The notes under the pieces are model-generated. The model was not told the origin of the DNA and made no database searches. It saw only the letters and a program-made list of their open reading frames with translations. A program made the translations under genes and the position numbers. This document shows positions 4,779-64,000 of a stretch of DNA of 64,000 bases, piece after piece. The DNA is taken from assembly GCA_964393205.1 (NCBI GenBank), contig CAYMSV010000001.1, forward strand, positions 244,581 through 308,580, written 5' to 3'. Origin of the DNA: an uncultured Pseudomonadales bacterium. Its GTDB lineage: Bacteria; Patescibacteriota; Microgenomatia; UBA1400; PJMF01. Within the stretch, counting starts at the first letter, position 1, and the number at the start of each line of letters is the position of its first letter.

Positions 4779-4833
4779 AATAAGGATTAGTTTAACAGAA
4801 TTTACTTATTTTTTGAGGGGGAATTGTACTTTT

Positions 4834-5739: not shown

Positions 5740-5780
5740 GTTTCAATTATAGCATCTACATAGCTGTATAATAATCATAA

Positions 5781-38674: not shown

Positions 38675-38679
38675 TAGAT

Positions 38680-40990: not shown

Positions 40991-40991
40991 T

Positions 40992-42161: not shown

Positions 42162-42176
42162 TTTTAATTTATCTTT

Positions 42177-43055: not shown

Positions 43056-43057
43056 AT

Positions 43058-47341: not shown

Positions 47342-47344
47342 AAT

Positions 47345-48358
47345 TCATTTAATAATTGCTAAAGCTTCACGATAGATTGTCGCTTGTCTCTCTTTACCAG
47401 TCAAGCGATAAATTAAATAACGCCAGAATGCACCAGCTTTAAGAATCAAGCGCAGTAGCGATTGTTGCCAGGCTGGAAAATGCTTTTTCCAAATATATAA
47501 ATAACTTTTAAACTCACCAAGAATAGCATTTTTACTAGAAGAGCTAGCGCTACCCAAGTGAACAATTTTGGCGCCGGGATGAATGGCAATGTCAAAATGA
47601 TGGTTTTTAGCTCGTAGACAAAATTCTTGATCCTCACCGTACATAAAGATATTTTTGTCTAGATAGCCAATGCGATCGATGACGCTTTTTTTAATCAGCA
47701 TGGCTGTACCAGCTACCCAATCTTTATGGATGAGAGCTGTTTTTTGATTTTTTCGATCAAGAAAGAGTTTTTGTAAGGGGCGTTGATTACGACCTGTGTG
47801 TTGAGTAGAAGGCAAAAAGCGACCCAGCACCGGAATGTCATCTAAAAAAAACATTTGGTTAAAAACGGCACAGAGTGATAATTGTGAACCACCCTGAGGT
47901 TGAAGGGAGCCATCAGGATTGAGTAAAGTGGGGCTTAAAATACCCAGATAATCAACGATTTTTTCACTATCTTGAGTGGTAGCAGTGGCTAGTTGATCAG
48001 GATGATTAATAAAGGTTTTGACTAAAGTTTCTAGAGTGCCCTGTTGGACAATGGTGTCAGAGTTAAGCAACATCAAATATTCACCCTTGGCATTTTTGAG
48101 CGCTTGGTTATTAGCTTTAGCAAAGCCCAAGTTTTGTTTATTGGCAATGAGTTGGTAATTGCGAAATTTTGCCTTGTTAAAAAACTTCTTCACGGCATCT
48201 AAGCTGCCATCTTGGCTATTGTTATCAACCACATAGATTTCGCTATCTTTTTTTAGTAAGTCGCTACTTTTGATATCAGCTAACAAGCTCTCCAATGTCT
48301 GGAGGGTTAATTCTTGAGTGTTATAAGAAACAACAATGACGGATAAAAGCTTTTGCAT
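47345..48358 (-). CDS. Glycosyltransferase family 2
   Basis: LSVIVVSYN...YVVDNNSQDGS GT2 N-terminus. Confidence 0.75.
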   Translation of the reverse strand: MQKLLSVIVVSYNTQELTLQTLESLLADIKSSDLLKKDSEIYVVDNNSQDGSLDAVKKFFNKAKFRNYQLIANKQNLGFAKANNQALKNAKGEYLMLLNSDTIVQQGTLETLVKTFINHPDQLATATTQDSEKIVDYLGILSPTLLNPDGSLQPQGGSQLSLCAVFNQMFFLDDIPVLGRFLPSTQHTGRNQRPLQKLFLDRKNQKTALIHKDWVAGTAMLIKKSVIDRIGYLDKNIFMYGEDQEFCLRAKNHHFDIAIHPGAKIVHLGSASSSSKNAILGEFKSYLYIWKKHFPAWQQSLLRLILKAGAFWRYLIYRLTGKERQATIYREALAIIK

Positions 48359-48369
48359 AATTTTTTAAC

Positions 48370-49011
48370 TTATTGAAATAAGCGGGGGCGTCCTAGGCGA
48401 TAATTGCTAGCAGTTTGTGGTCGTTGATCAATAACTTTAGCTGGCACGCCAGCCACAATGTCATAGGGAGCCACATCTTTGGTGACAATAGCGCCAGCAG
48501 CAATCACTGCTCCCTCACCAATCTTAACACCAGGCATAATAATAGCTCTGGGGCCAATAAAAACGTAGTCGCCAATAGTGACCTTTTCTTCAATAGTAGT
48601 CATTTCGCTAGATTTAACATCGTGCTCACTAGTCCAAATCATTACTTCTGAGGCAATATCGACGTGATTGCCAATTTCTAGTCCGCCTCGAGAATTTTCC
48701 AGTTGACGGCGGCCATCCAGCGTGGCTTTTTCACCAATGAGAGTGCCAGCACCAATCTTAATTCCCGATGGATAATAAATTCTAGCCATCATGTGAATAG
48801 TGGAGCCTTTGCCAATTTTTATGCCAGAGAGTCGATAAAAGAATCTTCGCCAACAATGAAAAGGTAAAAAACCCACTCCCCACCAGAGGAAACCAGTCCA
48901 TATTTCTAAAAGAATAGTTTTCACTCGTCTTTTGGCTTTAGAGCGAATTTGACTAGAATTTAAGACACGTCCATGTTTATCTGTAATAGGCATGAGACTA
49001 GTATACAACAC
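48370..49011 (-). CDS. Hexapeptide-repeat (LbH) sugar O-acetyltransferase, membrane-anchored
   Basis: N-terminal TM helix; left-handed beta-helix repeats [13 protein letters not shown]. Confidence 0.7.
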
Positions 49012-49040
49012 AGAGCGAAAACTGTTGAGGTGCGAGTGAT

Positions 49041-50072
49041 TTAGTTCTTTTCTTTAGGCGGGGTGATACCAAAATATTGATAAGCCTTATGAGAGACAAT
49101 CCGTCCTTTAGGGGTACGGCGAATGAAACCAATCTGTAATAAATAGGGTTCCAAAACTTCTTCAATGGTACCGGCATCTTCGCTGATACTGGCAGAAAGA
49201 GTTTTAAGCCCCACCGCTTTACCATCATGTTTTTTAATCAAAGCCATCAGTAGGCGGCGATCGTTTTCATCTAAACCCAGCTCATCGATTTCAAAAATTT
49301 CCAGGGCTTTAGTAACGAGGGCCGAATCAATACTGGCTTTTTCCAAAACTTGAGCAAAATCACGCACGCGCTTAAGTAGTTTAAGGGCAATTCTTGGTGT
49401 GCCTCGGGAGCGTTCAGCCAAAGAGAGGCGAGCGGGACGATCAATAGTGCAGTGTAATTTATCACTGGCATATTTAATAATTTTTTCTAGTTCCTGTGGC
49501 TGATAAAATTCCAAGCGATGAATTAGGCCAAAACGATCACGAAATGGCCCGGTCAGCAAACCAAAGCGAGTGGTAGCTCCGACCAGGGTAAATTTTGCCA
49601 AATCTAAGCGCACAGTGCGAGCGCTGGGACCTTTGCCAATGACAATATCTAGAGCAAAATCTTCCATAGCTGGATAAAGAGTTTCTTCAACGGCTTTGGG
49701 TAAGCGATGAATTTCATCAATAAATAAAATATCTCCATCTTCTAAATTAGTTAAAATAGCAGCCAAATCACTGGTTTTGGAGAGGGCGGTGCCTGAGGTA
49801 ATGCGAAAATTAACGCCCATTTCTTTAGCGATTAATTGAGCCAAGGTCGTCTTACCCAATCCTGGGGGGCCGTAAAAAAGGACATGATCGATGGCTTCTT
49901 TTCTTTGAGCAGCTGCATCAATGGCAATTTTTAGAGATTTTTTAATATTTTCTTGACCCAAGAACTCCTGCCAATTACTGGCACGCAGCGAGGTAAAAAG
50001 TAATTCTTCCTCATCATCCTTGATGAGACGAGGATCAATATCAGTTTTTGTCATAATTTTTTCCACTAGCAA
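49041..50072 (-). CDS. ruvB: Holliday junction branch-migration ATPase RuvB
   Basis: Walker [13 protein letters not shown]+ domain. Confidence 0.95.
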
Positions 50073-50637
50073 TTTTTAGAGCCTGTTTGATGGCCACTGC
50101 CAAATCCAAGCTTTCAATATCAATTTTTTCCAAGGCAAAATTAATGCTTTGATCATCAAAACCCAAGCCCAAAAGTGCATCATAAACATCTTGTTTTTTT
50201 GGTGAGAGCGTGGCGAGGTTAAGTTCTTTGAGCCCACCTAGTTTACTCTTTAATTCAATAATGATTTTTTGGGCTAGTTTTTTGCCGACTCGTGGTATAG
50301 CAGTGAAAAAACTTAAATTAGCTTCTTGTACAGCACTAATTAGTTTTTCTGCTCCAGCATTAACGATGGCTAGAGCAGTTTTAGGCCCAACCCCAGAAAC
50401 GGTCAAAACTAGTTGAAAGAGAGCCAATTCTTTTTCTTGGGCAAAACCATAAAGTTCTAATCGATCTTCTTTGACGTGAGTAAAGATATGAGCTTCGAGC
50501 TCTTCGCCCTTTAATTCATTTTGACTAGCACTTTGCAAAAAGTTGCTAGTAGCCTGAACCTGATAACCAACTCCCCCACAAATAATAATCAGATAGTTTT
50601 TTTTGACAGTAACTTGACCTTTGAGATAAGCAATCAT
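50041..50637 (-). CDS. ruvA: Holliday junction DNA helicase subunit RuvA
   Basis: MIAYLKGQV...GVGYQVQ OB fold plus helix-hairpin-helix. Confidence 0.9.
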   Translation of the reverse strand: MIAYLKGQVTVKKNYLIIICGGVGYQVQATSNFLQSASQNELKGEELEAHIFTHVKEDRLELYGFAQEKELALFQLVLTVSGVGPKTALAIVNAGAEKLISAVQEANLSFFTAIPRVGKKLAQKIIIELKSKLGGLKELNLATLSPKKQDVYDALLGLGFDDQSINFALEKIDIESLDLAVAIKQALKIASGKNYDKN

Positions 50638-51134
50638 AAATTTTTTAACTTTCTGGCAGCTTGATGGCAGATGAGTAGAGCTAGCGCATCAAAAGTATCA
50701 TCTAGGATCTCTTCTGTGCCTTTTTGATCAATTGCTAACTCCATCCGTACCATCTTTTCTACAGCTTTTTTGTCCGCTCGTCCATAGCCAGTTACAGCTT
50801 GCTTGATTTGTAGTGGCGTATATTGGCTAATTTTTAAACCAGCACTGAGCAAGGTAGCCATAATTAAACCCCGAGCCTCACTGACTTTCATGGCTGTACT
50901 CTGATTTTTAAACCAAAAGAGGGTTTCAATGGCGGCTTCTTGGGGCTGAAGCTGATCTACGATGTCTTTTAATTCGCTCAAAATTTGTTGATAGCGATCC
51001 TCAATTTCTCCTTGTCGATCAGTAGTGATGCAGCCATGGCCAAAAATCTGCCAACCACTTTTCAATTGTTGAGCCACTGCCCAACCCAGGCGATCATAAC
51101 CTGGATCAATGCCAATAATAATCGGATTAGGCAT
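50634..51134 (-). CDS. ruvC: Crossover junction endodeoxyribonuclease RuvC
   Basis: IIIGIDPGYDRLGWAV catalytic N-terminus. Start taken at ATG 51134, two nt after the upstream stop. Confidence 0.85.
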   Translation of the reverse strand: MPNPIIIGIDPGYDRLGWAVAQQLKSGWQIFGHGCITTDRQGEIEDRYQQILSELKDIVDQLQPQEAAIETLFWFKNQSTAMKVSEARGLIMATLLSAGLKISQYTPLQIKQAVTGYGRADKKAVEKMVRMELAIDQKGTEEILDDTFDALALLICHQAARKLKNL

Positions 51135-52320
51135 TTTTACTTTCGCTAGCTGTTTTTTTAATGAGAGCAAGAATTTTTGAAGCAGATTTTTGCCAAGTAA
51201 AGCGCTTAGCATATCTTTGTCTAGCGTTGATCAGGCTTTGATATTTTTTGCTACTTAGTTTATTGAAATCAAGCATTTTTTGAGCAATAGCTTGGTGATC
51301 TTGGGGGTCAACACTGAGCTTAGCCTCGGCAACCACTTCATTGAGGCTGGAATTGTCAGCGACAATTGGCAAGCAACCGGCTTCAATTGATTCTAGGGCT
51401 GGAATACCAAAACCCTCATAAAGAGAGAGTAAAAAGCTTAATTTGGCTCGCTGGTAAAGAGCTTTTTTAAACTTACTGGGCACAAAACCGGTGACAATAA
51501 TTTTTTCTTTAAAGATAAATTTATCAATTTGCTTGAGTAAATCATCACTTAGCCAACCAACTTTGCCAGCAATGACTAGTTGTGGCGCTTGAGCTAGAGC
51601 TCGATCTTTATTATTGTTGGTTTGAGCTAGAGTTTCTAGTAAAAAGATTTCATAAGCTCTGATGAGTGAAGACAGATTTTTTCTTGGCTGAAGAGTGCCC
51701 AAATAGAGAAAACAATTGTTCTTGATGTCGTGTTGGCGGAAAAATTGCTTGCTTTCTTCTTGTTTGGCACTTTTGGCAAAGCGATTAGCTGGTGGGGCAA
51801 CCAAAATATCTTTTGCCGATCGGCCATAATGCTTAATAATTTCTTGTTTGGAAAAATCACTAATAGTTAAAACCTTTTTAGCATTTTTGACACTATATTT
51901 TGTCCAAGATTTTAGTTGCAAAAGATCTTCGGGACGAAATTGTTGAGGAAAGTGCAAATAAGCCAAATCCATAACACTACTAATATATGGCACGCTAGAA
52001 AAGCGTGGCGCATAGTGACCAGGTGTAAAAAAGAGATCATAGTCCTTGCGGTGCAAAAACAAATGAATCGGTAGTGCCCATTGAGTCCAGAGTTTTTGGG
52101 GCTGCAGGTAAACATAAGTCCAATTTTTTCTAGTTTCTGGTAGATCAGCAACTTTTTCTCTGGCTAACAAGACAGTAATTTGCCACTGACTAGATTTTTT
52201 ACACTGCTTATAAAATTGCTGAAGAATTTCAAAAGCATAGACATTGCTGCCAACACGTTTTTCAACATTAGCTTCATTGCCGTCAATAGCTAGGTAGATA
52301 GTTTTTTTGTTTTTAGTCAT
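51127..52320 (-). CDS. Glycosyltransferase family 4 (GT-B)
   Basis: GT1/GT4 C-terminal domain with E..GFG.P..E. Confidence 0.7.
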   Translation of the reverse strand: MTKNKKTIYLAIDGNEANVEKRVGSNVYAFEILQQFYKQCKKSSQWQITVLLAREKVADLPETRKNWTYVYLQPQKLWTQWALPIHLFLHRKDYDLFFTPGHYAPRFSSVPYISSVMDLAYLHFPQQFRPEDLLQLKSWTKYSVKNAKKVLTISDFSKQEIIKHYGRSAKDILVAPPANRFAKSAKQEESKQFFRQHDIKNNCFLYLGTLQPRKNLSSLIRAYEIFLLETLAQTNNNKDRALAQAPQLVIAGKVGWLSDDLLKQIDKFIFKEKIIVTGFVPSKFKKALYQRAKLSFLLSLYEGFGIPALESIEAGCLPIVADNSSLNEVVAEAKLSVDPQDHQAIAQKMLDFNKLSSKKYQSLINARQRYAKRFTWQKSASKILALIKKTASESKNA

Positions 52321-53456
52321 TTTTTCTCTTCAATAGCTCGGCGATAAACTTCCAAGGTAGTGCGAGCAGTTTTGGACCAGTTAAAAAGATGCAGGCGAAT
52401 TATCATGCGCTGGAGGCGGGTGGCGCTAGCAGCCTTGTCTTCACCAAGTAACTTTTTTAAACCACTGCGAATATCTTCAATACTATTGGGATTAACTAAA
52501 AGAGCGGCATTACCAGCCACTTCTTTAATCACAGGAATATCGCTACTCAGCACTGGCACACCATGAGAAAAGGCTTCCAAAATAGGTAAGCCAAAACCTT
52601 CATCAAGGCTGGGATAAGCTAGTAATTCGGCATAATGGTAAAGGGCAGCTAAAGCTAAATCATCAACTTGGCCCATAAAGCGCAAGTGCTCTTGATGAAG
52701 CTGACGACTCTTATCCCAAGCTTTTTCACCAGCGACAATTAAGTCAAAATCTCCAGCCAAAGGTTCCCAAGCTTTAATCAGGCGCTCTAAGTTTTTGCGT
52801 GGCTCCCGACTACCCACAAAGAGAATATAAGGACGAGTCAATTTAAGCTTTTTTTTCAGCTGAACACGCAATTCGTCACTGGCACTCAAGCGATCACTAG
52901 TTTCCTTAATGGCTCGTGGCAGAGCTTCATAAGTGACAGTAATGCGTTCGGGCGGAATTTGCAGTAGTTTAACAATCTCATTTTTACTAGCTTGAGTAAC
53001 GGTTAAAATTTGCGCACTTCGCTCTTTTAAAATTTTCCAAGAGCGCTGGTGAGCAGCTAAGACTCGAGGATGAGCCGTCTCTGGATATTTGAGAATAGCT
53101 AAATCATGAATGGTGGAAACCAGTGGCAGATCTTTATCTGGTGGTTGTAGCCAATCCCAACTGTGAAAAACCTCTACCCCAGGCATAGTGTTAGTGATTG
53201 GTCGCAGACCCAGAGACCATAGTTTAGCTAAGATTGAGGGCGGAATTTTACCTAAAAAAAGATCATATTTGTCTGGAGTGGTGCTTTTTAATTGCTCTTT
53301 TAACTCTTCACTTAGCTGAGCGTGAGCCCTGAGGGAATTGCCATAAAGTAAGAGTTCGACATTGGGTAATTCAAGTAAAGCCAGCATTAAATTACTGGTA
53401 TAGCGAGAGACCCCGCGCCGATAAACTAAACTACTGACATCCAAGCCGATTTTCAT
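52317..53456 (-). CDS. Glycosyltransferase family 4 (GT-B)
   Basis: MKIGLDVSSL N-terminus and C-terminal EGFGLPILEA. Confidence 0.75.
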   Translation of the reverse strand: MKIGLDVSSLVYRRGVSRYTSNLMLALLELPNVELLLYGNSLRAHAQLSEELKEQLKSTTPDKYDLFLGKIPPSILAKLWSLGLRPITNTMPGVEVFHSWDWLQPPDKDLPLVSTIHDLAILKYPETAHPRVLAAHQRSWKILKERSAQILTVTQASKNEIVKLLQIPPERITVTYEALPRAIKETSDRLSASDELRVQLKKKLKLTRPYILFVGSREPRKNLERLIKAWEPLAGDFDLIVAGEKAWDKSRQLHQEHLRFMGQVDDLALAALYHYAELLAYPSLDEGFGLPILEAFSHGVPVLSSDIPVIKEVAGNAALLVNPNSIEDIRSGLKKLLGEDKAASATRLQRMIIRLHLFNWSKTARTTLEVYRRAIEEKK

Positions 53457-54915
53457 AGGCCATCACACTTTCTTTACTATACATTCTAACAAAACCAATA
53501 TTAGGATAATCTAGTACACCAATATTTTCAAAACCCAAATCTTGAATAAGTTTGGGCAGTTGATCATTAGGATCAGTTAAATCACGCAGATAATCAAAGA
53601 GTAAGACATATTCATAATCACTCAAGGTTTTGAGTCGATTAGCCAAATCCGTTTCAGCTGGCAAATAGTAGCTTTGGGTGGCAAAAGCATCGATCCAAGC
53701 CTCGCTGTAATAAACCCAAGGGGCAAAAGGAGCGCTAAAAGAAAAAACAGCCACTGATTTGCCTCGACCATAAGCTAGCTCCACTTCTTCAACTAGGGAG
53801 CGCCAATTTTCGCGTTGCAGTTTGGGTTGCAGCCAATAACTAACTAGAGCAAACAAATGAATGGCAAAGAGGCTAAAGAAAAGAATTTTAGCCAAGACCA
53901 TTAAGCGGCCTTTGGCTTCAATAATTAAGTGACTGATGAAAATAAAGAAGGCGGGTAGTAAAAATAAGACGCGCTTGGGCTGTAGCACCGGAATAAAAAA
54001 GGAAAAGACCCAGATTAAAAGCAAGGGAGCAAGAAAAAAATAAAGAGCAAAAGTTAGTGCAGTTTGAGTGTTTTTGTTAGAGCGCTGATCATAAAAGAGC
54101 TTGGTGACTAGAACCAGCAAGAGTAAAAAACTAGCAATAAAAAAGAGATTGGGCTCTAAATCAAGCAAGCCATAAATAAATTTGAGTGGCACTAGCGGCA
54201 AACTTTTGAGCTGAGGTAGGCTAACCACCTCTGCCCAACCCGGCATTTGTAAGCGCAGAGCTTGACCGACAGTTAATTGCTGCCAAAACTTAGGCAGCCA
54301 AGGTAGAAAAGCCAAAACAATTAGGCCGAGAGGCGCTAGCAACTTTTTGATTTTAATTTTTTTAACTAGAGTCAAATAAGCCAGCTGGCAGAGCAAGAAA
54401 AAGGGATATAAATAACTAGAATAAAGACCAAAGATAGAACTAAGTATAAAAGTGAGTTGAGAGCGCTTTTTGGGCCAGTTGAGCATGGCCAGGGTGCCTA
54501 AACTAGCCCACATCATCGCTAAACTATAAGGCCTGAGTTCTTGGGAGAAGAAAATATGCAAGGGCGAAGTAGCCAGAAACAGAGCACTTAAAAAAGCAAT
54601 GGCTCTAGCCTGCTTTTTTTTAGCAAAAAGTTGCAGGGCAATTTGGTAAGTAGCCCAAACACTAATGAGGCCAGGAATGACACTGGGTAGTAAGCGCAAG
54701 AGGGCTTCATTTTGTCCCAAACCAAAAACACTGAGCAAGCGCAGCCAAAAAAAAGTTAGCAAGTGCATCAGTGGTGGTTGAAAGTCAGCAGCAATTTGCA
54801 GTTGCTGGCTGAGTGGACGAGCACTTTCCAAAATTTGAGCAGCTTCATCTAGCCAAAAAGAATCATTGAGTCTGACTAAACGCAAAAGTAAAGCTAGGAA
54901 TAAAATAGCCTTCAT
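53431..54915 (-). CDS. GT-C fold membrane glycosyltransferase, PMT_2 (GT39/GT83) family
   Basis: FWLDEA motif in the first extracytoplasmic loop, followed by about 12 TM helices. Confidence 0.7.
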   Translation of the reverse strand: MKAILFLALLLRLVRLNDSFWLDEAAQILESARPLSQQLQIAADFQPPLMHLLTFFWLRLLSVFGLGQNEALLRLLPSVIPGLISVWATYQIALQLFAKKKQARAIAFLSALFLATSPLHIFFSQELRPYSLAMMWASLGTLAMLNWPKKRSQLTFILSSIFGLYSSYLYPFFLLCQLAYLTLVKKIKIKKLLAPLGLIVLAFLPWLPKFWQQLTVGQALRLQMPGWAEVVSLPQLKSLPLVPLKFIYGLLDLEPNLFFIASFLLLLVLVTKLFYDQRSNKNTQTALTFALYFFLAPLLLIWVFSFFIPVLQPKRVLFLLPAFFIFISHLIIEAKGRLMVLAKILFFSLFAIHLFALVSYWLQPKLQRENWRSLVEEVELAYGRGKSVAVFSFSAPFAPWVYYSEAWIDAFATQSYYLPAETDLANRLKTLSDYEYVLLFDYLRDLTDPNDQLPKLIQDLGFENIGVLDYPNIGFVRMYSKESVMAYENRLGCQ

Positions 54916-54933
54916 CTCTCCTATTATGGCAAT

Positions 54934-55611
54934 TTAGAGGGTGAGGCGCAAATGTAAAATTCTACCGATGATCTTGAAACCGTCTAAAAGTTCCATCTTT
55001 TGGTCGGTGGGATGATAAATGGTCTTGATAGGTACGGTAGCAAAAGGTAAGTAGTTGCGAGCGGTGCGGCAAGAAATTTCGACTTCAACACTATAATTAT
55101 TACTCTGCCAGCGCAGTTTAGGATAAACTTCTTTGCTGATCGCTTTATAACCGGACAGCGAATCGGAAATGTAAAAGTCATAAAGTGCCCAGATCAAAAA
55201 AGAAATGGCACGATTGCCGGCTACTCGCCCCAGTGACATGCCTTGTTTGAGGTTGCGAAGGCCAAAAATTAATTGTGGTGGTTTTTTTTGATCAAGCAGG
55301 GCAAAAAAGTGTTGCAAATCACTTGGATCGTGCTGGCCATCACCATCCATAAAAATCACATACTTGGCATCGAGTTCGTTGAAAGCAAAGTCAGCCCCTT
55401 TGCGCATGCTAGCGCCTTTACCCAAGTTAGTCTCATTAATTAAGCAGTGTTTAACATATTTTTTGGCAATTTTACAGGTGCTGTCACTAGAGCCATCGTC
55501 AACGAGAACAATGTTTTTAGTAATAGTTCTTAGTTTTTTGAGTAAAGGATGGAGGTGGCGAGCTTCGTTGTGGGCAGCGATAACGATATAAGTATGATTA
55601 TTTGCTGTCAT
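54934..55611 (-). CDS. GT2 polyprenyl-phosphate glycosyltransferase, DPM1-like soluble form
   Basis: VIAAHNEA...VLVDDGSSD...FMDGDGQHDP. Confidence 0.7.
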   Translation of the reverse strand: MTANNHTYIVIAAHNEARHLHPLLKKLRTITKNIVLVDDGSSDSTCKIAKKYVKHCLINETNLGKGASMRKGADFAFNELDAKYVIFMDGDGQHDPSDLQHFFALLDQKKPPQLIFGLRNLKQGMSLGRVAGNRAISFLIWALYDFYISDSLSGYKAISKEVYPKLRWQSNNYSVEVEISCRTARNYLPFATVPIKTIYHPTDQKMELLDGFKIIGRILHLRLTL

Positions 55612-55671
55612 TGCTCGCTATTATGCCTATTTTGCTCTGCGCTGACAAGCGAAATTTGCTAGAATAAAGAT

Positions 55672-56718
55672 ATGGAAGACATAATTATTGAGCATTATTT
55701 AGCAAAAAAAACGGTATTAATTACTGGCGCTGCTGGCTTTATTGGCTCTCACCTGGTAGATAAGTGTCTGAGTTTGGGGGCGGTGGTGATTGGTGTGGAT
55801 AACTTTATCACTGGTCGGCGAGTGAATTTGAGTCACTTAGAAGACAATCCAGATTTTTATTTGGTAGAAGCTGATGTTAGTCAGACAGCTGAGCAATATT
55901 TGACCTTAGCCCTCGATCAACTAGAAGCTGAGAGACCAGAAACGGCCAAAATTGATGTGCTTTTTCACCTAGCCTCTCCAGCTAGCCCACCAGCCTATCA
56001 GGAACAACCAATTGAAACTTATTTAGTCAATTCGATTGGTACCCATAATCTATTGAGTTTTTTACAAAGCCACTACCCTAGTGCGTGTTTGGTTTATGCC
56101 AGCACCAGTGAGGTTTATGGTGATCCCCTAGTTCATCCCCAAAGTGAAGATTATTGGGGCAATGTTAATCCCAATGGGCCGCGCTCTTGCTATGATGAGA
56201 GTAAGCGCTTGGGTGAAACTATTTGTGGGGTGTTTACTCGCCTCTACCAAATGGATATTCGCTTAGCCAGAATTTTTAATACCTATGGCCCGAGAATGCG
56301 TCCTGATGATGGACGGATTCTACCCAACTTCATCAATCAAGCCCTAAAAAAAGAGCCCCTAACTGTCTATGGTGATGGCAAGCAAAGTCGCTCTTATTGT
56401 TTTGTCAGTGATTTAGTAGAGGCTTTAGTGGAGCTAGGTAGTAAAGAAGATTTGGCTGGTGAGACAATTAATTTAGGTAATAATGAAGAATTTACCGTTT
56501 TGCAAACTGCGCTCTTGGTGCAAAAGATGATTAATGAGCAAGTTGCCAAAGGTGATGTTGTTTTTGAAAAATTACCAACCGATGATCCAACTCGCAGACA
56601 GCCAGATATTAGCAAGGCAGAGAAATTACTCAATTGGCAGCCAAAAATTGAATTTAGAGATGGTTTGAGAAGAACCATTGAGTATTTTCAGACTAGCGAA
56701 GCGCATATTTTGGAGTAA
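55672..56718 (+). CDS. UDP-glucuronate decarboxylase (UDP-xylose synthase, UXS/ArnA-decarboxylase-domain-like SDR)
   Basis: GAAGFIGSH, HLASPASPP, ASTSEVYGDPLVHPQSEDYWGNVNPNGPRSCYDESKR and RIFNTYGPRM read as near-identical to UXS blocks as I recall them (human UXS1 used as reference). Confidence 0.85.
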   Translation: MEDIIIEHYLAKKTVLITGAAGFIGSHLVDKCLSLGAVVIGVDNFITGRRVNLSHLEDNPDFYLVEADVSQTAEQYLTLALDQLEAERPETAKIDVLFHLASPASPPAYQEQPIETYLVNSIGTHNLLSFLQSHYPSACLVYASTSEVYGDPLVHPQSEDYWGNVNPNGPRSCYDESKRLGETICGVFTRLYQMDIRLARIFNTYGPRMRPDDGRILPNFINQALKKEPLTVYGDGKQSRSYCFVSDLVEALVELGSKEDLAGETINLGNNEEFTVLQTALLVQKMINEQVAKGDVVFEKLPTDDPTRRQPDISKAEKLLNWQPKIEFRDGLRRTIEYFQTSEAHILE

Positions 56719-58020
56719 TTAGGATTTAAACTCTCTTTTCCACTCAATTTTAAGCATTAGCCAGGTGAATAACAGTAATCCAGCTCGAGTAATCAGCCGT
56801 ACCCAAGCACTAGCGATAATGCCATATTGAGGCACAAAGATCATATTACCAAACAAGATGATGATCAGTTGCAAAATAGCACTCAGGCTAAAGTAGCGAT
56901 TGTTTTTGAAGGCATAAAAAGGACTAATAAAAGGCATTAGGGCCACACTGATAAAGCCAGCACCAAGTAAAATATGCAAAACATTGAGGGCACTTAAATA
57001 GTCACTACCAATAGTAAAGCGAATTAAATATGGGGCGAAAGGTAAACTGAGAGCAAAAGCTAAAACACTCAGAGCAAAAATTAGCCAAGCTTTGCCAATA
57101 AAGATCTTCAAATCTTTAGCTTTTTTGTAAGCAGCTACCCGAGGATTAAGGACATTAGCCATGGCATAGGCTACCACATAAAGGAGCATGGCAATGCGAC
57201 TCACTCCAGCCAGCAAACCGGTTTCAAAATCTGTCAAATAGTGTTTGGCAAAGAGAATATCCAAATTTTCAATCAGTCCAGCGACTATGACGCTCAAGGC
57301 ACTATGGCGCAAGATCGCTTTTAGTTGAGACTGAGCTTTGGGTTTTTTGATCTTGAGATCATAAGCTAGCCAGCGGGGCTTAAAGAAATGAAAGAGCAAT
57401 AAACTGGGCAGAGCAGCTAAAAGATAAAGACTAATAATTAAATTAATATCAGTAATCCCCTGCCAATAAACAAAAATGGCTAAAAGTAATTTAAATAGGC
57501 TGGGAAAAAAATATGAAAAAGCAGCCAACTTATTGTTTCCCAAACTTTGCAGGGTAGCCAAACTACTTTCAAAAAAGGTAGTAGACATTGAAACAAGAAA
57601 AGTTAAGGGAATCAAGGCAGGATTGTCGATATTGAGCAGTGCAGAAATTTGACTACTAAAAATTAAGCCAAGTGCCGTAATCAGTAGCACCAATACCAAG
57701 CGATATTTCAAACAGAGTGAGAGAAAAATATTGATTTTTTTCTTTTTACTAGTACCACCAACTAATTTTTGCAAAGCAATATTCAGGCCACTATCTTGAA
57801 GGCGATTGAGAATCAAAGACAGAGAAAAAGCGCTAGAAAAATAGGCAAAACTAATGGGACCAAGCAAGCGAGAAATTAAAATAATAGCAACAGCGCTAAA
57901 AGCGGAAGCAATCAGCGAGCTAGTGATCATCAAGAGCGAACCAGCGATACCTTGATGCCGGCGTAAATAGCGATTAAAAAACATCCTTTTTATTTTACTA
58001 GATAGTGAGAGGAGAAACAA
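56719..58020 (-). CDS. Oligosaccharide flippase (Wzx/MOP superfamily)
   Basis: 433 aa, about 12 TM helices. Confidence 0.65.
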   Translation of the reverse strand: MFLLSLSSKIKRMFFNRYLRRHQGIAGSLLMITSSLIASAFSAVAIILISRLLGPISFAYFSSAFSLSLILNRLQDSGLNIALQKLVGGTSKKKKINIFLSLCLKYRLVLVLLITALGLIFSSQISALLNIDNPALIPLTFLVSMSTTFFESSLATLQSLGNNKLAAFSYFFPSLFKLLLAIFVYWQGITDINLIISLYLLAALPSLLLFHFFKPRWLAYDLKIKKPKAQSQLKAILRHSALSVIVAGLIENLDILFAKHYLTDFETGLLAGVSRIAMLLYVVAYAMANVLNPRVAAYKKAKDLKIFIGKAWLIFALSVLAFALSLPFAPYLIRFTIGSDYLSALNVLHILLGAGFISVALMPFISPFYAFKNNRYFSLSAILQLIIILFGNMIFVPQYGIIASAWVRLITRAGLLLFTWLMLKIEWKREFKS

Positions 58021-58055
58021 TTAAACTTTTTTCTAGATCATGCTAAGATAATTCT

Positions 58056-58616
58056 ATGCTTTTTTATCTAGTTTTAATTTTCTTCAGTTTATCCCTAGTT
58101 AACTTTGTTTATTGGCCTGTACAAGACTACTTTGTTAGGCAAGAATTATTAATTACCAGTATCCCTAGTATTTACCCCACTCTTTTCATATTGTTAAGTA
58201 TTATTGTTTTGACCTTGTTACAAAATAAATTAAAAAAAATTTCAGCAGGCTTATTATTGGCTATCTCAGTAGTAGGTTTAGTAGGATCTTTATTGGTTTT
58301 TGATAAATTTTATTTAAAAAATAGAGATTTTTATCAAAGTCCAGTAATTTATCAAATTTCAGAACCATGGCTTATTCAAGGTAGTACGGTAAAAATCACT
58401 GGCATTAGGTTTTTTGATTCAAATCAGGAGCGAGGAAGGGTTATAATAGGAGATCAAGAATTATTAATTGTGGATTGGCGAGATTATGGAATTATTGCTA
58501 GATTGCCAGTGCCACACAGTTTTGGTGATCGGAAAATACAAGTCATTCGCTCTGATCAAAAACTAAGCAATCAAGTTATGGTAAAAATTAAAGATCCAGC
58601 AACTTTAGGAAATTAA
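58056..58616 (+). CDS. Small membrane protein with a C-terminal Ig/IPT-like beta domain
   Basis: Three N-terminal TM helices followed by a beta-rich 90-aa domain. Confidence 0.5.
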   Translation: MLFYLVLIFFSLSLVNFVYWPVQDYFVRQELLITSIPSIYPTLFILLSIIVLTLLQNKLKKISAGLLLAISVVGLVGSLLVFDKFYLKNRDFYQSPVIYQISEPWLIQGSTVKITGIRFFDSNQERGRVIIGDQELLIVDWRDYGIIARLPVPHSFGDRKIQVIRSDQKLSNQVMVKIKDPATLGN

Positions 58617-58620
58617 AAAT

Positions 58621-59556
58621 ATGAAATTAATTATCATGATTCCCTGCTTTAATGAAGAGAAAACTCTTCCTTTGGTAATTAACTCAATTCCTAAAAAAAT
58701 AGTTGGCATTGATAAAATTGAAACATTAATCGTGGATGATGGTTCTAGTGATCAAACAGTGCTTGTCGCTAAAAAACTCAAAGTCAACCACATCATTCAA
58801 CACAAAAATAATAAGGGTTTAGCTAGAGCTTTTGAAACTGGTTTAAACGCCTGTTTGGATAAAGGCGCAGATATTATTGTCAATACAGATGGAGACAATC
58901 AATATCCTCAACAAGATATAACTCGTTTAATAAAACCGATTTTAGATGGCAGTGCTGAAATTGTTATTGCTGATCGCCAAACAGATAAGATTAGTCACTT
59001 TTCTCCTCTTAAAAAGTTTTTGCAAAAATTTGGTAGCTGGTGGGTACAGTTTTTATCTGGTACAAAGATTCCTGATGCAGTGTCAGGTTTTCGAGCCTAT
59101 AGCCGTGAAGCAGCACAACAGCTAAATGTAGTTACCGATTTTTCATATGTAATTGAAACCATCATTCAAGCTAGTAAGAAAAAAATTGCAATTACTTCAG
59201 TTCCTGTTATTACTAATCCAAAAACCAGAGAATCTAGATTATTCAATAGCATGTGGGGACATGTTAAAAAATCTGGAGCAACCATGGTAAGAGTATTTGC
59301 CATGTATGAGCCGCTCAAAACTTTTAGTTTTTTGGCACTAGTGATGTTATTGCCAGGATTATTCTTAGCAGGTCGATTTTTATATTTTTATTTTATTGAA
59401 GGAACTGGTACTGGTCACCTACAATCTTTGTTGCTGTCGGCTGTGTTAATTATTGTGGGTTTTCAAATATTCTTAATTGGTTTAGTGGCAGATTTGATTG
59501 CAAGTAATAGGAAATTAATAGAAAAAATAATTAAGAAAACTAAAAGTGCATCCTAA
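58621..59556 (+). CDS. GT2 polyprenyl-phosphate glycosyltransferase (GtrB/ArnC/DPM1-like) with two C-terminal TM helices
   Basis: IMIPCFNEE, IVDDGSSD, NTDGDNQYP motifs plus a C-terminal TM pair. Confidence 0.75.
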   Translation: MKLIIMIPCFNEEKTLPLVINSIPKKIVGIDKIETLIVDDGSSDQTVLVAKKLKVNHIIQHKNNKGLARAFETGLNACLDKGADIIVNTDGDNQYPQQDITRLIKPILDGSAEIVIADRQTDKISHFSPLKKFLQKFGSWWVQFLSGTKIPDAVSGFRAYSREAAQQLNVVTDFSYVIETIIQASKKKIAITSVPVITNPKTRESRLFNSMWGHVKKSGATMVRVFAMYEPLKTFSFLALVMLLPGLFLAGRFLYFYFIEGTGTGHLQSLLLSAVLIIVGFQIFLIGLVADLIASNRKLIEKIIKKTKSAS

Positions 59557-60616
59557 TTCTCGTCAAGTTTTATTTGTAACAAGAAAGTATCCTCCTGCTG
59601 TGGGCGGTATGGAAAAAATGCATTTCGAATTATCTAAATCATTGGAAAAAGTACGCTCAACAAAAATTATTGCATATGGTGGCAGTCAAAAATTTTTACC
59701 AGTTATTTTACCAATTTTGTTTTTCCGAACAATTTTGTTTATTTTTAAATATAAGTCAGCAGATATTATTTTAGGTGATGCTTTACTTAGTATTTTTATT
59801 CCTATTTTAAAATTGTTTGGTAAGAACAAAATTATGGTAATCGCTCACGGTTTAGATATTACCTATAATCGTTTTTTTTATCAACAAATAGTCATACCTA
59901 ATCTGAAGAGGGCCAACATTGTTGTTAGTATTAGTAATGCTACTAAAAAGGAACTCATAAAAAGAGGAATTTCAGAAACACAAGTTAATGTGATACCCGT
60001 TGGTATTAATATTAGTAATTATCAAAAAGAGATTAATTTAAAACTAGTAAAGAATGAATTAGCAAAAAAAATTAATTTAAATTTATCTAATAAAAAATTG
60101 TTATTGACGGTTGGTAGATTAGTTGAAAGGAAGGGACATGCTTGGTTTATAAACCAAGTTATGCCACTTCTAGATGATGATTTTATTTATTTAATTATCG
60201 GAGAAGGTGAACAAAGAAAAAATATTGAAGAATTGATTGCTCACAAAAAATTACAAAAAAGAGTTTTTTTGCTTGGGAAAGTTAATGAGAACTATAAGAT
60301 TGAATTATTGAGATTAGCTGATGTTTTTATCATGCCCAATATTGAAGTTAAAAATGACCCTGAGGGTTTTGGTATTGTGGCTTTAGAAGCAGCAGCAGCT
60401 GGTTTGCCAATTATAGCAACCAAACTGGAAGGTATAAAAGATTCAATTGCAAACAATTTGAGTGGTTATTTAATAAAGTATATTAACGCCGACATATTTG
60501 TTAAAAAAATAATTAAAGCGATAAAAAACAAAAAATTAAAAAATTCTTCAATAAAATATGCTTATCAATTTTCATGGGATCTTATAATTAATAATTACTT
60601 AAAAGTGCTAGTGTAA
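59546..60616 (+). CDS. Glycosyltransferase family 4 (GT-B)
   Basis: C-terminal EGFGIVALEAAAAGLP motif. Confidence 0.75.
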   Translation: MHPNSRQVLFVTRKYPPAVGGMEKMHFELSKSLEKVRSTKIIAYGGSQKFLPVILPILFFRTILFIFKYKSADIILGDALLSIFIPILKLFGKNKIMVIAHGLDITYNRFFYQQIVIPNLKRANIVVSISNATKKELIKRGISETQVNVIPVGINISNYQKEINLKLVKNELAKKINLNLSNKKLLLTVGRLVERKGHAWFINQVMPLLDDDFIYLIIGEGEQRKNIEELIAHKKLQKRVFLLGKVNENYKIELLRLADVFIMPNIEVKNDPEGFGIVALEAAAAGLPIIATKLEGIKDSIANNLSGYLIKYINADIFVKKIIKAIKNKKLKNSSIKYAYQFSWDLIINNYLKVLV

Positions 60617-60625
60617 CTATAAAAC

Positions 60626-61456
60626 ATGAAAGCTTCTGTTTGTATTACTAGATATTGTGAGTCAGATTCTATATTAATTAGATGTCTTAACAGTATTTTT
60701 AATCAAAAAAGCATTTTTTTAGAAGTTGTAGTAATTGATCAAAAACCAACAAAAAAAATTGAAAATTTTTGTTTAAAAAACAAAAACAAATTACCAATTA
60801 TTTATAGGAAAACAAAACCATTGGGTTTGTCTGTTGCAAGAAATGTTGGCATCACTGAATCAAGTAATGATTTTATTTTATATCTAGATGCTGACGCTAC
60901 GGCAGAAGAAAATTGGGCTTATTTTTTAACAAAAACTCTCAATAGAGATAGAGTTGCAATAGCAGGAAGTAGAATACTTCCTTTGTGGGGGGAACGAGAA
61001 CCTATTTTTTTAAAATCGAAAGTAATTTGGGAACAATATTCAATGCTTGATTTTGGTGAATTAGAAAAAGAAACCACTAAAATAATTGGTGCTGGATTTG
61101 GTATTGATAGAAAAAAAACGAAAAATCTAGTATTTAATACTAGGCTTGGAAGATTTAATGGAAATCTTTTAGGCGGTGAAGAAACAGAATTCTGTAAGAA
61201 GATGAGAAACAAGGGATTTTTAATTTTCTATAATGGAAAATCATTGGTTTATCATCATGTATCTAAAGAAAGAACTACCTTAAATTGGCTAATTAAAAGA
61301 CTTTTTGCGGCAGGAAGAAGCCGTTTAAATCAAGGGGGGTATCCAAAATCCACTCATAAAAAGAATGTTTATGACCTTGTTTTTATGCCTCTAATTGTTG
61401 TTCCCTATATTTGTGGTTTAATATTTCAAAAACTAATTACTATCAATAATGATTAA
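60626..61456 (+). CDS. Glycosyltransferase family 2
   Basis: GT2 fold (VVVIDQ, YLDADA). Confidence 0.65.
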   Translation: MKASVCITRYCESDSILIRCLNSIFNQKSIFLEVVVIDQKPTKKIENFCLKNKNKLPIIYRKTKPLGLSVARNVGITESSNDFILYLDADATAEENWAYFLTKTLNRDRVAIAGSRILPLWGEREPIFLKSKVIWEQYSMLDFGELEKETTKIIGAGFGIDRKKTKNLVFNTRLGRFNGNLLGGEETEFCKKMRNKGFLIFYNGKSLVYHHVSKERTTLNWLIKRLFAAGRSRLNQGGYPKSTHKKNVYDLVFMPLIVVPYICGLIFQKLITINND

Positions 61457-63344
61457 GACTATAATAGACTATTTTCTAGCAAATTCGCCAATAAGAGGTT
61501 TTCCTGGAAACTCAGTCCTTGGAACTTTTTTAATTATTATTATTCCATTATTAATAGGGATTTTTATTAAACATTTATTTTATAAGAACAAGTGTTTACA
61601 AAAAAATATTTCAAACTTGATTTTTGCTATTCTTATCTTAATTCTTTTATATTTTATTTTTTTAAACAAGTTTGATGTATACCATTACTATATTTTTTTT
61701 ACCATAACCTTTGTTTTATCTCTATTGTATTGGGGATATATTTTATTGATAAAAAAGGATAACTCTATTTATTTAAAATCTTTTCTTAATGAAAAACTCA
61801 ATGAAAAAATTGAGGTATCTAGAAACAAATCACGTTTTCAATTTATTTATTTAGTTATAGTGGTCACATCACTTGCATTTATCAACATACTCTTAATAGG
61901 TGGAGATTTTAAAAAGGTTGTTGGAGCTGATACTTGGTGGCATATTGCTTCTTCTATAAGAATTAATGATGTGCTTAGATTTAGAAATCCATTATTTAAC
62001 AATGCAATTAATCATTATCCACCCTTATCATATATTTTACCGAATATATTAAGTAAAATTGGGTTGTCAATTACTCAAAGTTTTAATTTTTTAGCAATAT
62101 TATTTAATATTTTGAATACACTTTTATTTTATCTTGTTCACATAAAAATTATTAAAAATAAACAAGCAGCCTTGGTTTCAGCTTTATTAACATCAAAAAT
62201 AATTGCTGATTATACACCCGCGGTTTTAGGTTACTTTTTATTAAATTTATCATTATTGGTTTTTTATAAATTCCTTCTGTCTTCCAAAAAAATAATATAC
62301 TTATTTTTTTATCTAATAACAATAACTTTAATTTTACTAACTCATTATGAGTTTTTTATAATTTCTTTAGTGATACAATTTTTTTTCTTAGTTTTTTATG
62401 TATTATTAAAAATAAAATTAACCAAACAAATTATAAAACAACTAAACCAACTTTTTCTTTATGCTGAAAAATATATTTATTTTCCAAACGAGTATATTAT
62501 TATTATTTTAGGAATACTCATATCAATTTATTTAAACTTTGTTAACAAAGAAGCTCTTGTTTTAAAATCAGAACTTCCCATGAATCTATATAATAACATC
62601 TCAATATTAAGTTTTTTCTTTATAATCTATATACCAATTTATTTAATAAAAGAAAAAATTATAATTCATCATAAAATTTTATTTATTTCTGTTTTATTTC
62701 TTTCTACAAATACTTTTTTTTACTTTATTCGTATTTTTAATATTCATCATGTTCGTTTTTCAGAATATGCTTTTAGTGTCATTGCTTATCCAATAATAGT
62801 TAATGAACTTTTTAAAAAATTTTCAAGAACAATTAACAAACTTTCTTTTACGATAGTTTCCATATTAGTTCCATATTCTATAATATCTTCTTTTTATCCA
62901 AATTATATAAAAGCATCTGAATCCGCATATATTAACAAAATTAAACAAACATCGGCCTTGGGTTTGGAAAGGATTGATAGCGAAGCAGTTGTTTTTATTG
63001 AGCCAAGTGATCTTCTTATTAGGTTCTTTGCTCTTAATTATAATTTTAAAATTTTTGCTGTTAGCCTAAATAACAATGCTGGATCAAGACCTTTGACAAC
63101 AATTCCTGATTTGGTTGAAACTTTTGGTTTTTTTGACATAAAAAAGAGATTAAAATTAACTGAAAAATTTTTGGATACTGGGGATGTGAATTTATTAAAA
63201 AATAGTAAATATAAAATTAATTATCTCTTATTTAGTCATGATTATTTTAACAAGGTAAACAAAAAACGATTATTTGAAATTAATGATGTTAGTATTATTA
63301 ACCAAAACAGCTTTTACGTTTTGATAAAAATTACAGACTTATAA
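61449..63344 (+). CDS. Large polytopic membrane protein (about 14+ TM helices), possibly a GT-C-like glycosyltransferase or polymerase; markedly AT-rich
   Basis: Hydrophobic throughout. GADTWWHIASS loop. Ile/Lys/Asn/Phe/Leu/Tyr codon bias unlike the neighbouring genes. Confidence 0.45.
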   Translation: MIKTIIDYFLANSPIRGFPGNSVLGTFLIIIIPLLIGIFIKHLFYKNKCLQKNISNLIFAILILILLYFIFLNKFDVYHYYIFFTITFVLSLLYWGYILLIKKDNSIYLKSFLNEKLNEKIEVSRNKSRFQFIYLVIVVTSLAFINILLIGGDFKKVVGADTWWHIASSIRINDVLRFRNPLFNNAINHYPPLSYILPNILSKIGLSITQSFNFLAILFNILNTLLFYLVHIKIIKNKQAALVSALLTSKIIADYTPAVLGYFLLNLSLLVFYKFLLSSKKIIYLFFYLITITLILLTHYEFFIISLVIQFFFLVFYVLLKIKLTKQIIKQLNQLFLYAEKYIYFPNEYIIIILGILISIYLNFVNKEALVLKSELPMNLYNNISILSFFFIIYIPIYLIKEKIIIHHKILFISVLFLSTNTFFYFIRIFNIHHVRFSEYAFSVIAYPIIVNELFKKFSRTINKLSFTIVSILVPYSIISSFYPNYIKASESAYINKIKQTSALGLERIDSEAVVFIEPSDLLIRFFALNYNFKIFAVSLNNNAGSRPLTTIPDLVETFGFFDIKKRLKLTEKFLDTGDVNLLKNSKYKINYLLFSHDYFNKVNKKRLFEINDVSIINQNSFYVLIKITDL

Positions 63345-64000
63345 GAGAACTTAAAAAAATTACATTCTTTTTTTTTAAAAACTTTTTAGTTACTTTATCT
63401 ATTTTAATCTCATCGAATAGTGGAAAAAGATATATTTTTTTATTTATTTTAACGTTTAGTAAAGAAGATGAACTAATTGTAACTCCTAAGCTTTTTTTAT
63501 CGAATGTAATCAACTCAGCGGGAATATTACTTAATAATGTACAATTAATGTTTTTAAAAATCATTCTATTCTCTCTTGGATGGGGTTTTATATAAAGATG
63601 ATAACTATAATTTTTACAATATTTTTCTAGTGTTTCTAATAAATTTAAAAATGTGCTTTTTGAAACTCCTCGTAATTCATCATATGGCTGAGAGAAAAAA
63701 ACAACTCCTTTTTTTGATATATCAAAATTAAATAAAGATTTTTTAAATAAACTCTTAATTTTATCTTTATTTTTTTCAACAAAATAAAAAGAATTTTCAT
63801 TATAAATATGATCAATACCTTTTTTATTTATTAAGGAAACTTCACTAACATACAAGCTTTGATTTAATTTTAATTCACCAATATATTTTAATTTTTTCAT
63901 TTTAAAAATGATATCTAAGAACAAATCAATTAATTTTTTTTTGTTTTGATTTAGTGTGCTGGAATAAATGCCAACCCCTTCTTCTAAAAGGAAAAATTTA
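63331..64000 (-). CDS. AT-rich hypothetical protein; frame stays open to the window end (possibly partial)
   Basis: Track ORF is 63331..63924, but the in-frame minus-strand reading has no stop up to position 64000. Confidence 0.4.
   Translation of the reverse strand, partial: KFFLLEEGVGIYSSTLNQNKKKLIDLFLDIIFKMKKLKYIGELKLNQSLYVSEVSLINKKGIDHIYNENSFYFVEKNKDKIKSLFKKSLFNFDISKKGVVFFSQPYDELRGVSKSTFLNLLETLEKYCKNYSYHLYIKPHPRENRMIFKNINCTLLSNIPAELITFDKKSLGVTISSSSLLNVKINKKIYLFPLFDEIKIDKVTKKFLKKKNVIFLSSLISL

Follow-up and report, generated by a model that had tools for sequence, protein, structure and literature searches.

Does a run of glycosyltransferase genes in a bacterial genome encode one complete machine for attaching sugars outside the membrane, or do parts of different systems meet there? 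Positions 51127–61456 of a 64,000-nucleotide stretch of Patescibacteria DNA (the whole of this stretch is called the window below) raise this question. A sequence-only reading had described this locus as a complete extracytoplasmic glycosylation module, in which polyprenyl-phosphate-sugar synthases supply a membrane glycosyltransferase of the GT-C superfamily, accompanied by a UDP-xylose synthase (UXS) and a flippase. All ten open reading frames (ORFs) that it listed were found exactly where it had placed them, and searches against Pfam and NCBIfam largely agreed with its gene families for the family 4 and family 2 glycosyltransferases (GT4 and GT2) and the short-chain dehydrogenase/reductase (SDR). 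We found that the locus is a junction between a lineage-shared string of surface-glycan genes and a strain-specific, low-GC add-on cassette. The genes are real sugar-polymer genes, and the system is of an ordinary kind in a little-studied, uncultured, ultrasmall bacterium. What the analysis shows directly is which genes are present, their folds and motifs, their synteny and the position of the breakpoint.

DNA homology and base composition break at the same point

We compared the window with its closest relative (loci L001 and L007) by blastn. The DNA was 85% identical over 43462–58029, where the alignment ended, and past the equivalent point the relative carries ORFs unrelated to those of the window. 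Within the shared part, the conserved GT-C of the locus (GT-C_B) was 89% identical to its counterpart. GC content per gene was 0.37–0.43 across 38048–58020; that of the six genes from 58056 on was 0.31, 0.33, 0.28, 0.29, 0.23 and 0.20. Since the end of homology at 58029 coincides with the drop in GC, 51127–61456 is a chimera (Table 1). The synthases and GT-C enzymes do sit together, as had been claimed, but not as one complete module.

Table 1. Features of the junction and of the genes on either side of it, in window coordinates.
Feature	Coordinates	Strand	Basis
Rest of conserved string, ruvC through Bac_transf phosphoglycosyltransferase	38048–51212	-	Pfam, NCBIfam, collinearity
GT4_b glycosyltransferase, last glycan gene before ruvC	51127–52320	-	Glycos_transf_1 4.5e-25
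GT4_a glycosyltransferase	52317–53456	-	Glycos_transf_1 1.6e-27, Glyco_transf_4 3e-8
GT-C_B, 494-aa membrane glycosyltransferase of GT-C fold, divergent PMT_2-like clade (predicted)	53431–54915	-	Fold and homologues
Soluble 225-aa DPM1/PpgS-like GT2, candidate polyprenyl-phosphate-sugar synthase	54934–55611	-	Glycos_transf_2 4.6e-20
UXS, UDP-glucuronate decarboxylase/UDP-xylose synthase, extended SDR	55672–56718	+	Human UXS1 match
Probable MOP-family (Wzx-like) flippase, last gene shared with closest relative	56719–58020	-	Polysacc_synt 27.4 bits
Breakpoint	58030–58055		End of DNA homology and start of low-GC, strain-specific island
Small membrane protein, 186 aa, three N-terminal transmembrane helices and C-terminal IPT/TIG (Ig-like) domain	58056–58616	+	First island gene
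GtrB/ArnC/DPMS-type GT2, 311 aa, candidate polyprenyl-phosphate-sugar synthase	58621–59556	+	Glycos_transf_2 2.1e-24
Island GT4 glycosyltransferase	59546–60616	+	Glycos_transf_1 1.5e-36
Island GT2, AglG/HpsE-like, not DPM1-type	60626–61456	+	Glycos_transf_2 8.2e-17
GT-C_C, 631-aa orphan membrane protein of GT-C fold	61449–63344	+	Predicted fold

The left part of the locus belongs to a ~19-kb conserved string

To define gene order across species, we scanned one genome per species with a GT-C profile, which gave 80 loci, and assigned their ORFs to the best-matching window protein. An orthologue is counted at ≥35% identity, and denominators are the loci long enough to show the position in question. 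For a second scan, the GT4 at 43058–44257 served as the anchor. GT4_a has an orthologue after the GT-C in every species (64/64), UXS adjoins the GT-C in 61 of 63, and GT4_b holds its position in 60 of 63. RuvC (61/63), RuvA (61/63), RuvB (58/61), a hexapeptide acetyltransferase (56/58), a GT2 (53/58) and a Wzy_C-like protein (51/54) are conserved in the same way, and a flippase orthologue was present in 23 of 57 species. The order UXS, GT-C, GT4, GT4, RuvC, RuvA, RuvB, acetyltransferase, GT2, Wzy_C-like, PMT_2, GT4 is kept even at 38% GT-C identity, and the string from UXS to the phosphoglycosyltransferase (~19 kb) is collinear in ~60 species. In ~40 long metagenome contigs, collinearity runs on through GT2, GT4, GT4, ManC, the phosphoglycosyltransferase, DUF4012, RecO and an aminoacyl-tRNA synthetase.

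Reading down from 51212, the window carries ruvC, ruvA, ruvB, a WcaF-like acetyltransferase, a GT2, the Wzy_C-like gene and a PMT_2 GT-C (44254–45711), followed by GT4, GT2, GT4, GT4, ManC and a phosphoglycosyltransferase (38048–38674; Bac_transf 5e-60, EPS_sugtrans 245 bits). The genes are closely packed: GT4_a shares 26 nt with GT-C_B and 4 nt with GT4_b, and the stop of GT4_b probably overlaps the start of ruvC (~51134; the RuvC of relatives is 166 aa). The Holliday-junction resolvase genes ruvC, ruvA and ruvB (49041–51212, minus strand) lie inside the glycan string in ~60 of 63 species (loci L007–L166). Two divergent loci (L061 and L159) have no ruvCAB at this place, and their glycan genes are directly contiguous, which argues for a single glycan cluster interrupted by ruvCAB in place of the two neighbouring loci, 'locus I' and 'locus II', that had been read as separate. 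The bounds drawn at 51127 thus cut off a string that runs through ruvCAB and has its own phosphoglycosyltransferase, Wzy_C-like protein and second GT-C.

Two members of the string are assigned at the edge of detection. The Wzx-like protein scored 27.4 bits against a Polysacc_synt cut-off of 28.2 and gave no NCBIfam match and no PDB sequence match. It has ≥10 hydrophobic segments, where a MOP flippase has 12–14 TM helices, and aligns over its full length (21–412 versus 4–391, E 1e-6) to a second MOP flippase of the window at 11418–12635, so that the claimed flippase stands as probable on a borderline domain score. The Wzy_C-like protein, at 28.2 bits, also lies under its Pfam cut-off. Directly downstream of the priming phosphoglycosyltransferase is a 672-aa DUF4012 protein (36010–38028, minus strand), whose position is kept in ~40 contigs and which may help to set chain length or to export the glycan.

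The conserved GT-C represents a divergent clade restricted to Patescibacteria

GT-C_B had been described as a PMT_2-family enzyme with an FWLDEA motif, and as possibly a PMT-like protein O-glycosylation enzyme. The protein itself gave no Pfam, NCBIfam or PDB sequence match, even at E ≤ 10, whether searched as a single sequence or as a 39-sequence profile; its assignment therefore required homologue scanning and fold comparison. The PMT_2 model (PF13231), whose gathering threshold GT-C_B fails, did match most of its aligned homologues (29 of 39; E ≤ 0.01, 7.7e-12 at best), so the PMT_2 link is transitive, through homologues only. Aligned with hhalign to the bona fide PMT_2 protein of the window, the GT-C_B family profile gave 77% probability (E 2e-5). 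All 745 homologues are from Patescibacteria, and they are frequently annotated as GT39.

An AlphaFold model of GT-C_B (predicted local distance difference test, pLDDT, 91.4; predicted template modelling score, pTM, 0.90) showed the GT-C architecture, with GT-C enzymes as the sole matches in structure comparison and a C-terminal alpha/beta domain of ~120 aa. The SFWLDEAAQ stretch follows directly after the first transmembrane (TM) helix, with FWLDEA at residues 20–25. All 39 homologues, including those with no more than 43% identity, retain W21, D23 and E24. In the model, D23 and E24 lie just past helix 2–13; they are candidate catalytic residues of the first extracytoplasmic loop, where an acidic residue after TM1 is characteristic of the GT-C superfamily. 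Judged by this predicted fold and its homologues, GT-C_B belongs to the GT-C enzymes and, among these, to a divergent PMT_2-like clade known from Patescibacteria only. The GT-C fold and the FWLDEA motif were thus as described, and family membership was reached indirectly.

Neither of the two familiar names fits this enzyme. As a GT39 PMT, GT-C_B would need features that it lacks: it has no MIR domain, no PF02366 (PMT) match and no match to any PMT model. As an ArnT (GT83) it fails likewise, with no NCBIfam match and with arnB, arnD, arnE and arnF absent from the window scans; the similarity of its fold to ArnT is general to GT-C.

The best Foldseek matches of GT-C_B were STT3, PglB and AglB (E 7.6e-7 to 5e-5), and these raise another candidate function, that of an oligosaccharyltransferase or ligase transferring a polyprenyl-diphosphate-linked glycan en bloc to protein (pilin, S-layer) or a wall acceptor. 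The phosphoglycosyltransferase, glycosyltransferases and flippase of the string would make such a donor, and no dedicated polyprenyl-phosphate-sugar synthase is conserved nearby. We nevertheless consider a role of this type distinctly improbable.

The SDR gene encodes a UXS1-type UDP-xylose synthase

Aligned with human UXS1 (2b69), the SDR of the locus scored 310 bits (E 2.5e-91); the next family scored 155 bits and the best dTDP-glucose 4,6-dehydratase (RmlB) 113. The UXS1 catalytic residues TSE, YDExK and R(R/K)PD are aligned in the window protein (stretches 'astsevygdp', 'cydeskr' and 'rrqpdi'), which is thus closest to a characterised UXS and retains its catalytic residues. By sequence comparison the SDR is a UXS1-type UDP-xylose synthase, and the earlier assignment to UXS holds. 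Two other identities were rejected on the same scores: a dTDP-sugar dehydratase, given RmlB at 113 bits versus 310, and an ArnA-like 4-keto-pentose enzyme, given ArnA at 82 bits and PRK11908, the 4-keto-pentose synthase model, at 88. Relative to human UXS1, the protein also carries a 17-residue insertion at residues ~73–89 (AEQYLTLALDQLEAERPET), between NAD-binding strands.

We looked for a UDP-glucose dehydrogenase gene (ugd) as a source of the UXS substrate. No UDPG_MGDP_dh family protein occurred among the scanned window ORFs (Pfam), and the catalytic-motif expression GG.C[FLYIW].KD matched neither the window nor any of the 86 loci examined. A pentose (xylose) in the glycan is plausible.

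Two candidate synthases are not conserved partners of the GT-C

The locus encodes two GT2s that may load a sugar onto polyprenyl phosphate, and both keep the DDxS and DxDxQ motifs. None of the outcomes that the sequence-only reading had named as refuting was observed: the DPM1/GtrB motifs are present in both GT2s, and the SDR groups with UXS1 and not with RmlB. The first, of 225 aa, lies 18 nt upstream of GT-C_B and has no predicted TM helix. Its best NCBIfam matches were AglJ (87.6 bits, cut-off 325) and PpgS (70.5 bits, cut-off 370), both below threshold, and PDB sequence search returned generic GT2 matches only. Its DDGSSD and DGDGQ motifs align with those of the second, GtrB-like GT2, at 25% identity over 214 residues. 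This second enzyme combines a DxDxQ GT2 domain with two C-terminal TM helices (232–250 and 271–289), the arrangement of DPM1/GtrB/ArnC-type synthases, and matched PfDPMS of Pyrococcus (5mlz; 4.4e-12) and ArnC (1e-9) across catalytic and TM regions, with DDGS and DGDNQ conserved. It too fell below every NCBIfam equivalog cut-off (AglJ 123 bits of 325). Neither GT2 thus reached an equivalog cut-off that would assign its sugar.

The pairing of GT2 and GT-C proved not to be conserved. Of 80 species, 2 carry the 225-aa GT2 close to the GT-C, which limits it to the closest relatives, and 1 carries the GtrB-like GT2 there. In the variable region of another locus (L002), a 226-aa GT2 (5088–5768) adjoins a small DUF2304 membrane protein (4768–5091); the pair also occurs in L003. 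This pair resembles the one described for mycobacterial PpgS/Rv3632, where the GT2 synthase is likewise accompanied by a small integral membrane protein (Rv3632 being itself a DUF2304 member). Which polyprenyl-phosphate-sugar synthase sits in this neighbourhood seems to differ from strain to strain.

These results bear on whether 51127–61456 could after all be a single self-contained, ArnA/ArnC/ArnT-like module, in which UXS makes a UDP-pentose, a GT2 passes the pentose to polyprenyl phosphate, and GT-C_B transfers it to protein, lipoglycan or S-layer. The chimeric structure seen in the homology and GC break at 58029 speaks against it, as do the GT2 partners found near the GT-C in only 1–2 of 80 species. 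The UXS is UXS1-type (310 bits, versus 88 for the 4-keto-pentose synthase model and 82 for ArnA) and there is no aminotransferase or formyltransferase; GT-C_B, for its part, has no ArnT model match. The near-universal adjacency of UXS and the GT-C may simply reflect genome collinearity, and UDP-xylose could equally supply GT4 or GT2 enzymes. A module of this kind is, in our estimate, unlikely.

The low-GC island is an operon with an orphan GT-C

To the right of the breakpoint, five genes spanning 58056–63344 are separated by gaps of -11 to +9 nt, and this tight spacing with overlaps indicates one operon. Its last gene lies outside the segment originally described: GT-C_C starts 8 nt inside the preceding GT2 and has a GC content of 0.225. 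GT-C_C had no Pfam match, and a word-indexed homologue search was empty; an exhaustive search of 1.84 billion representative proteins recovered 21 relatives. The predicted structure (pLDDT 81.7, pTM 0.84) has the fold of the GT-C superfamily. Residue D161, in a VGAD motif, is invariant in an alignment of 16 relatives. Some relatives begin near residue 127–157, which makes the first three helices of GT-C_C look like an N-terminal extension; D161 would then lie in the core's first extracytoplasmic loop. Comparison of the GT-C_B and GT-C_C families by hhalign gave 8.5% probability, with no detectable sequence link. From its model and few relatives, GT-C_C appears to be a small, undescribed GT-C family.

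The GtrB-like GT2 shares this operon and compositional unit with GT-C_C, which is a likelier partner for it than GT-C_B. The other island genes are equally strain-specific. At ≥35% identity, the TIG protein was found nearby in 1 of 80 species, and GT-C_C was near the conserved GT-C in none of the 80. The island GT4 (GC 0.277) likewise had no orthologue among these species, and neither did the island GT2 (0/80; GC 0.289; AglG 83.9 bits, below cut-off). No GtrA-like (PF04138) protein occurs among the island ORFs, and the 186-aa TIG protein does not have GtrA architecture.

The domain O-mannosylated by TMEM260, itself a GT-C, in cMET, RON and plexins is the IPT domain. By analogy, the island could be a protein O-glycosylation system whose acceptor is the co-encoded TIG/IPT membrane protein, the first gene of the operon that also holds the GtrB-like GT2 and GT-C_C. 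TMEM260 is described in PMC10214176 as an O-mannosyltransferase specific for a domain common to these receptors. The TIG match, in what had been read as a small Ig-like membrane protein, is marginal (E 2e-4; 21.7 bits, cut-off 20.9), GT-C_C has no sequence link to TMEM260, and the TMEM260-like Pfam matches that we did see (2 of 39 homologues) sit in the other GT-C family, that of GT-C_B. With co-location as its only evidence, we judge this role for the TIG protein very improbable.

The island extends past 63344, and its far end lies beyond the window. Converging on GT-C_C is a polysialyltransferase-like ORF (63331–64000, minus strand; PF07388 E 1.3e-12, C-terminal half of the model; GC 0.20), whose frame is open to the window end, the gene being cut there. 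A similar gene was near the conserved GT-C in 0 of 80 species.

A proposed Wzx/Wzy-type string beside a Gtr-like cassette

We propose that 38048–58020 is a lineage-wide envelope-glycan string of Wzx/Wzy type and that a Gtr-type decoration cassette begins at 58030. Taken as a whole, this proposal has our moderate confidence. In it, the sequence of reactions, the sugar donors, the acceptor and the matching of each GT2 with a GT-C are inferred. In a Pacebacteria-type Patescibacterium, the string would specify a lipid-linked pathway in which the small Bac_transf phosphoglycosyltransferase starts synthesis on polyprenyl phosphate. Growth of the unit in the cytoplasm would then fall to five GT4s and two GT2s, which would draw on nucleotide sugars including GDP-mannose (through ManC) and UDP-xylose (through UXS). 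The WcaF-like enzyme would O-acetylate the glycan, the MOP flippase would export it, and the Wzy_C-like protein would polymerise or ligate it. The two PMT_2-like GT-Cs (44254–45711 and GT-C_B) would work at the outer face of the membrane, where the most likely reaction is the addition of single sugars carried by polyprenyl phosphate, and in this strain the donor for GT-C_B may plausibly come from the adjacent 225-aa PpgS-like GT2. In the island, the GtrB-like GT2 would load a sugar on polyprenyl phosphate, and GT-C_C would transfer it outside the membrane.

Several observations weigh against this proposal. The supply of UDP-glucuronate is unaccounted for, with no ugd in the window or the 86 loci. 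There is no DPM1-like synthase beside GT-C_B in ~78 of 80 species; its donor could be a polyprenyl-diphosphate oligosaccharide, or its synthase could be encoded elsewhere. Collinearity extends to housekeeping genes (ruvCAB, recO and the aminoacyl-tRNA synthetase), and in small, syntenic genomes of this kind the adjacency of UXS and GT-C is therefore weak evidence of functional coupling. The Wzx, Wzy_C and TIG assignments stand at or near the Pfam cut-offs, those of Wzx and Wzy_C below them. The island cassette lacks a GtrA-like flippase and hence the full set of GtrA, GtrB and GtrC that defines a Gtr-type cassette. Finally, it was probably acquired horizontally, as judged only from its GC content and its absence in relatives.

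Comparison with known systems

Like Wzx/Wzy clusters of the O-antigen, capsule or teichuronic acid type, the string has a Bac_transf enzyme, several GT4s and GT2s, ManC, UXS, a WcaF-like acetyltransferase, a MOP flippase and a Wzy_C-like protein. Unlike them, its core is invariant across the lineage instead of hypervariable, it contains ruvCAB and two GT-C enzymes, and no chain-length regulator was recognised in it, the Wzx and Wzy_C calls themselves being at or below Pfam cut-offs. The island in turn resembles the GtrA/GtrB/GtrC cassettes of O-antigen glucosylation: a DxDxQ GT2 with two C-terminal TM helices stands with a GT-C in a strain-specific, compositionally foreign segment. It differs from them in having no GtrA-type small flippase and in its extra GT4, GT2 and TIG-protein genes. 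GT-C_C is moreover an orphan family without a sequence match to known GtrC, and we saw no prophage context.

In mycobacteria, PpgS (Rv3631) is a polyprenyl-P-GalNAc synthase that works with the GT-C Rv3779 in decorating arabinogalactan (PMC3485146). The window has a comparable arrangement, a small soluble DPM1-like GT2 with PpgS as its second-best NCBIfam match adjoining a PMT_2-like GT-C; in contrast to PpgS, the GT2 scored 70.5 bits against an equivalog cut-off of 370, the pairing is found only in the closest relatives, and no Rv3632/DUF2304-type partner occurs in the window, though one is present in L002. The ArnA/ArnC/ArnT pathway for lipid A aminoarabinose is more distant: the UXS is UXS1-type (ArnA 82 bits, cut-off 777), ArnB, ArnD, ArnE and ArnF are missing, and the ArnC-like and ArnT-like genes of the window belong to different compositional units. 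Patescibacteria are considered to have no Gram-negative envelope and therefore no lipid A. From Ppm1/Pmt (GT39) O-mannosylation the locus differs in that GT-C_B has neither a MIR domain nor a PF02366 match and is 494 aa long, compared with ~500–750 aa and a loop-5 MIR in Ppm1/Pmt; the GT39 name of its homologues is automatic annotation only.

Implications for the Patescibacteria surface

Patescibacteria live attached to host cells. To our knowledge, their surface chemistry is essentially unknown. Here, one lineage keeps a fixed set of ~15 glycan genes, including a genuine UDP-xylose synthase and two GT-Cs, beside a site with strain-specific decoration cassettes; these are candidates for a conserved surface polymer and its variable decoration. 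Two GT-C families are missed by current domain libraries, one large and Patescibacteria-wide, the other with ~20 known members. Both enzyme types and overall logic follow what is usual in bacterial envelope glycans, so what the locus offers is better annotation and a choice of targets rather than a new principle. Three features are worth recording: the lineage-wide string with embedded ruvCAB, the near-universal UXS1-type gene beside a Patescibacteria-specific GT-C, and the orphan GT-C in a low-GC cassette.

A more specific version of the proposal, which we hold to be a long shot, is that the string makes a xylose/mannose envelope glycopolymer that defines the lineage of Pacebacteria-type CPR bacteria. 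This secondary wall polymer or lipoglycan would be completed beyond the membrane by two GT-Cs. The GT-C_B clade, tied to UXS, would then be a polyprenyl-phosphate-xylose transferase, and a hot spot from 58030 on would swap cassettes of GtrB and orphan GT-C. We know of no established polyprenyl-phosphate-xylose transferase activity in bacteria. If this version were true, cassette swapping at the hot spot would diversify the cell surface, to the benefit of attachment to hosts or escape from phages.

Additional observations

The literature that was searched held nothing specific on the cluster or on GT-C enzymes in Patescibacteria. A scan for promoters and terminators showed no enrichment over shuffled sequence. 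We rejected a reading of the locus as a defence system: a PADLOC scan was negative, and the weak 'GT4-conflict' Pfam matches amount to generic GT4 similarity. Among the third-party annotation records of metagenome-assembled genomes with the Patescibacteria-type locus (L007–L086), many are titled 'uncultured Pseudomonadales'; the closed genome CP011212.1, which carries the locus, is titled 'candidate division TM6', and other records are titled Vitreimonas, Limisphaerales and Methylococcaceae. These off-lineage titles look like mislabels or bin contamination.

Going by the annotations of homologues, the window belongs to Patescibacteria of the Pacebacteria/Paceibacterota type. Elsewhere, it holds a division and cell wall (dcw) cluster with murB, murA, mraY, ftsW, murG, ftsA and ftsZ. 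The second MOP flippase (11418–12635, minus strand) is the clearer of the two (PRK10459, 131 bits). It is adjoined by two ORFs without a Pfam match (9533–10651 and 10629–11417), and 9533–12635 on the minus strand may be a further small glycan locus.

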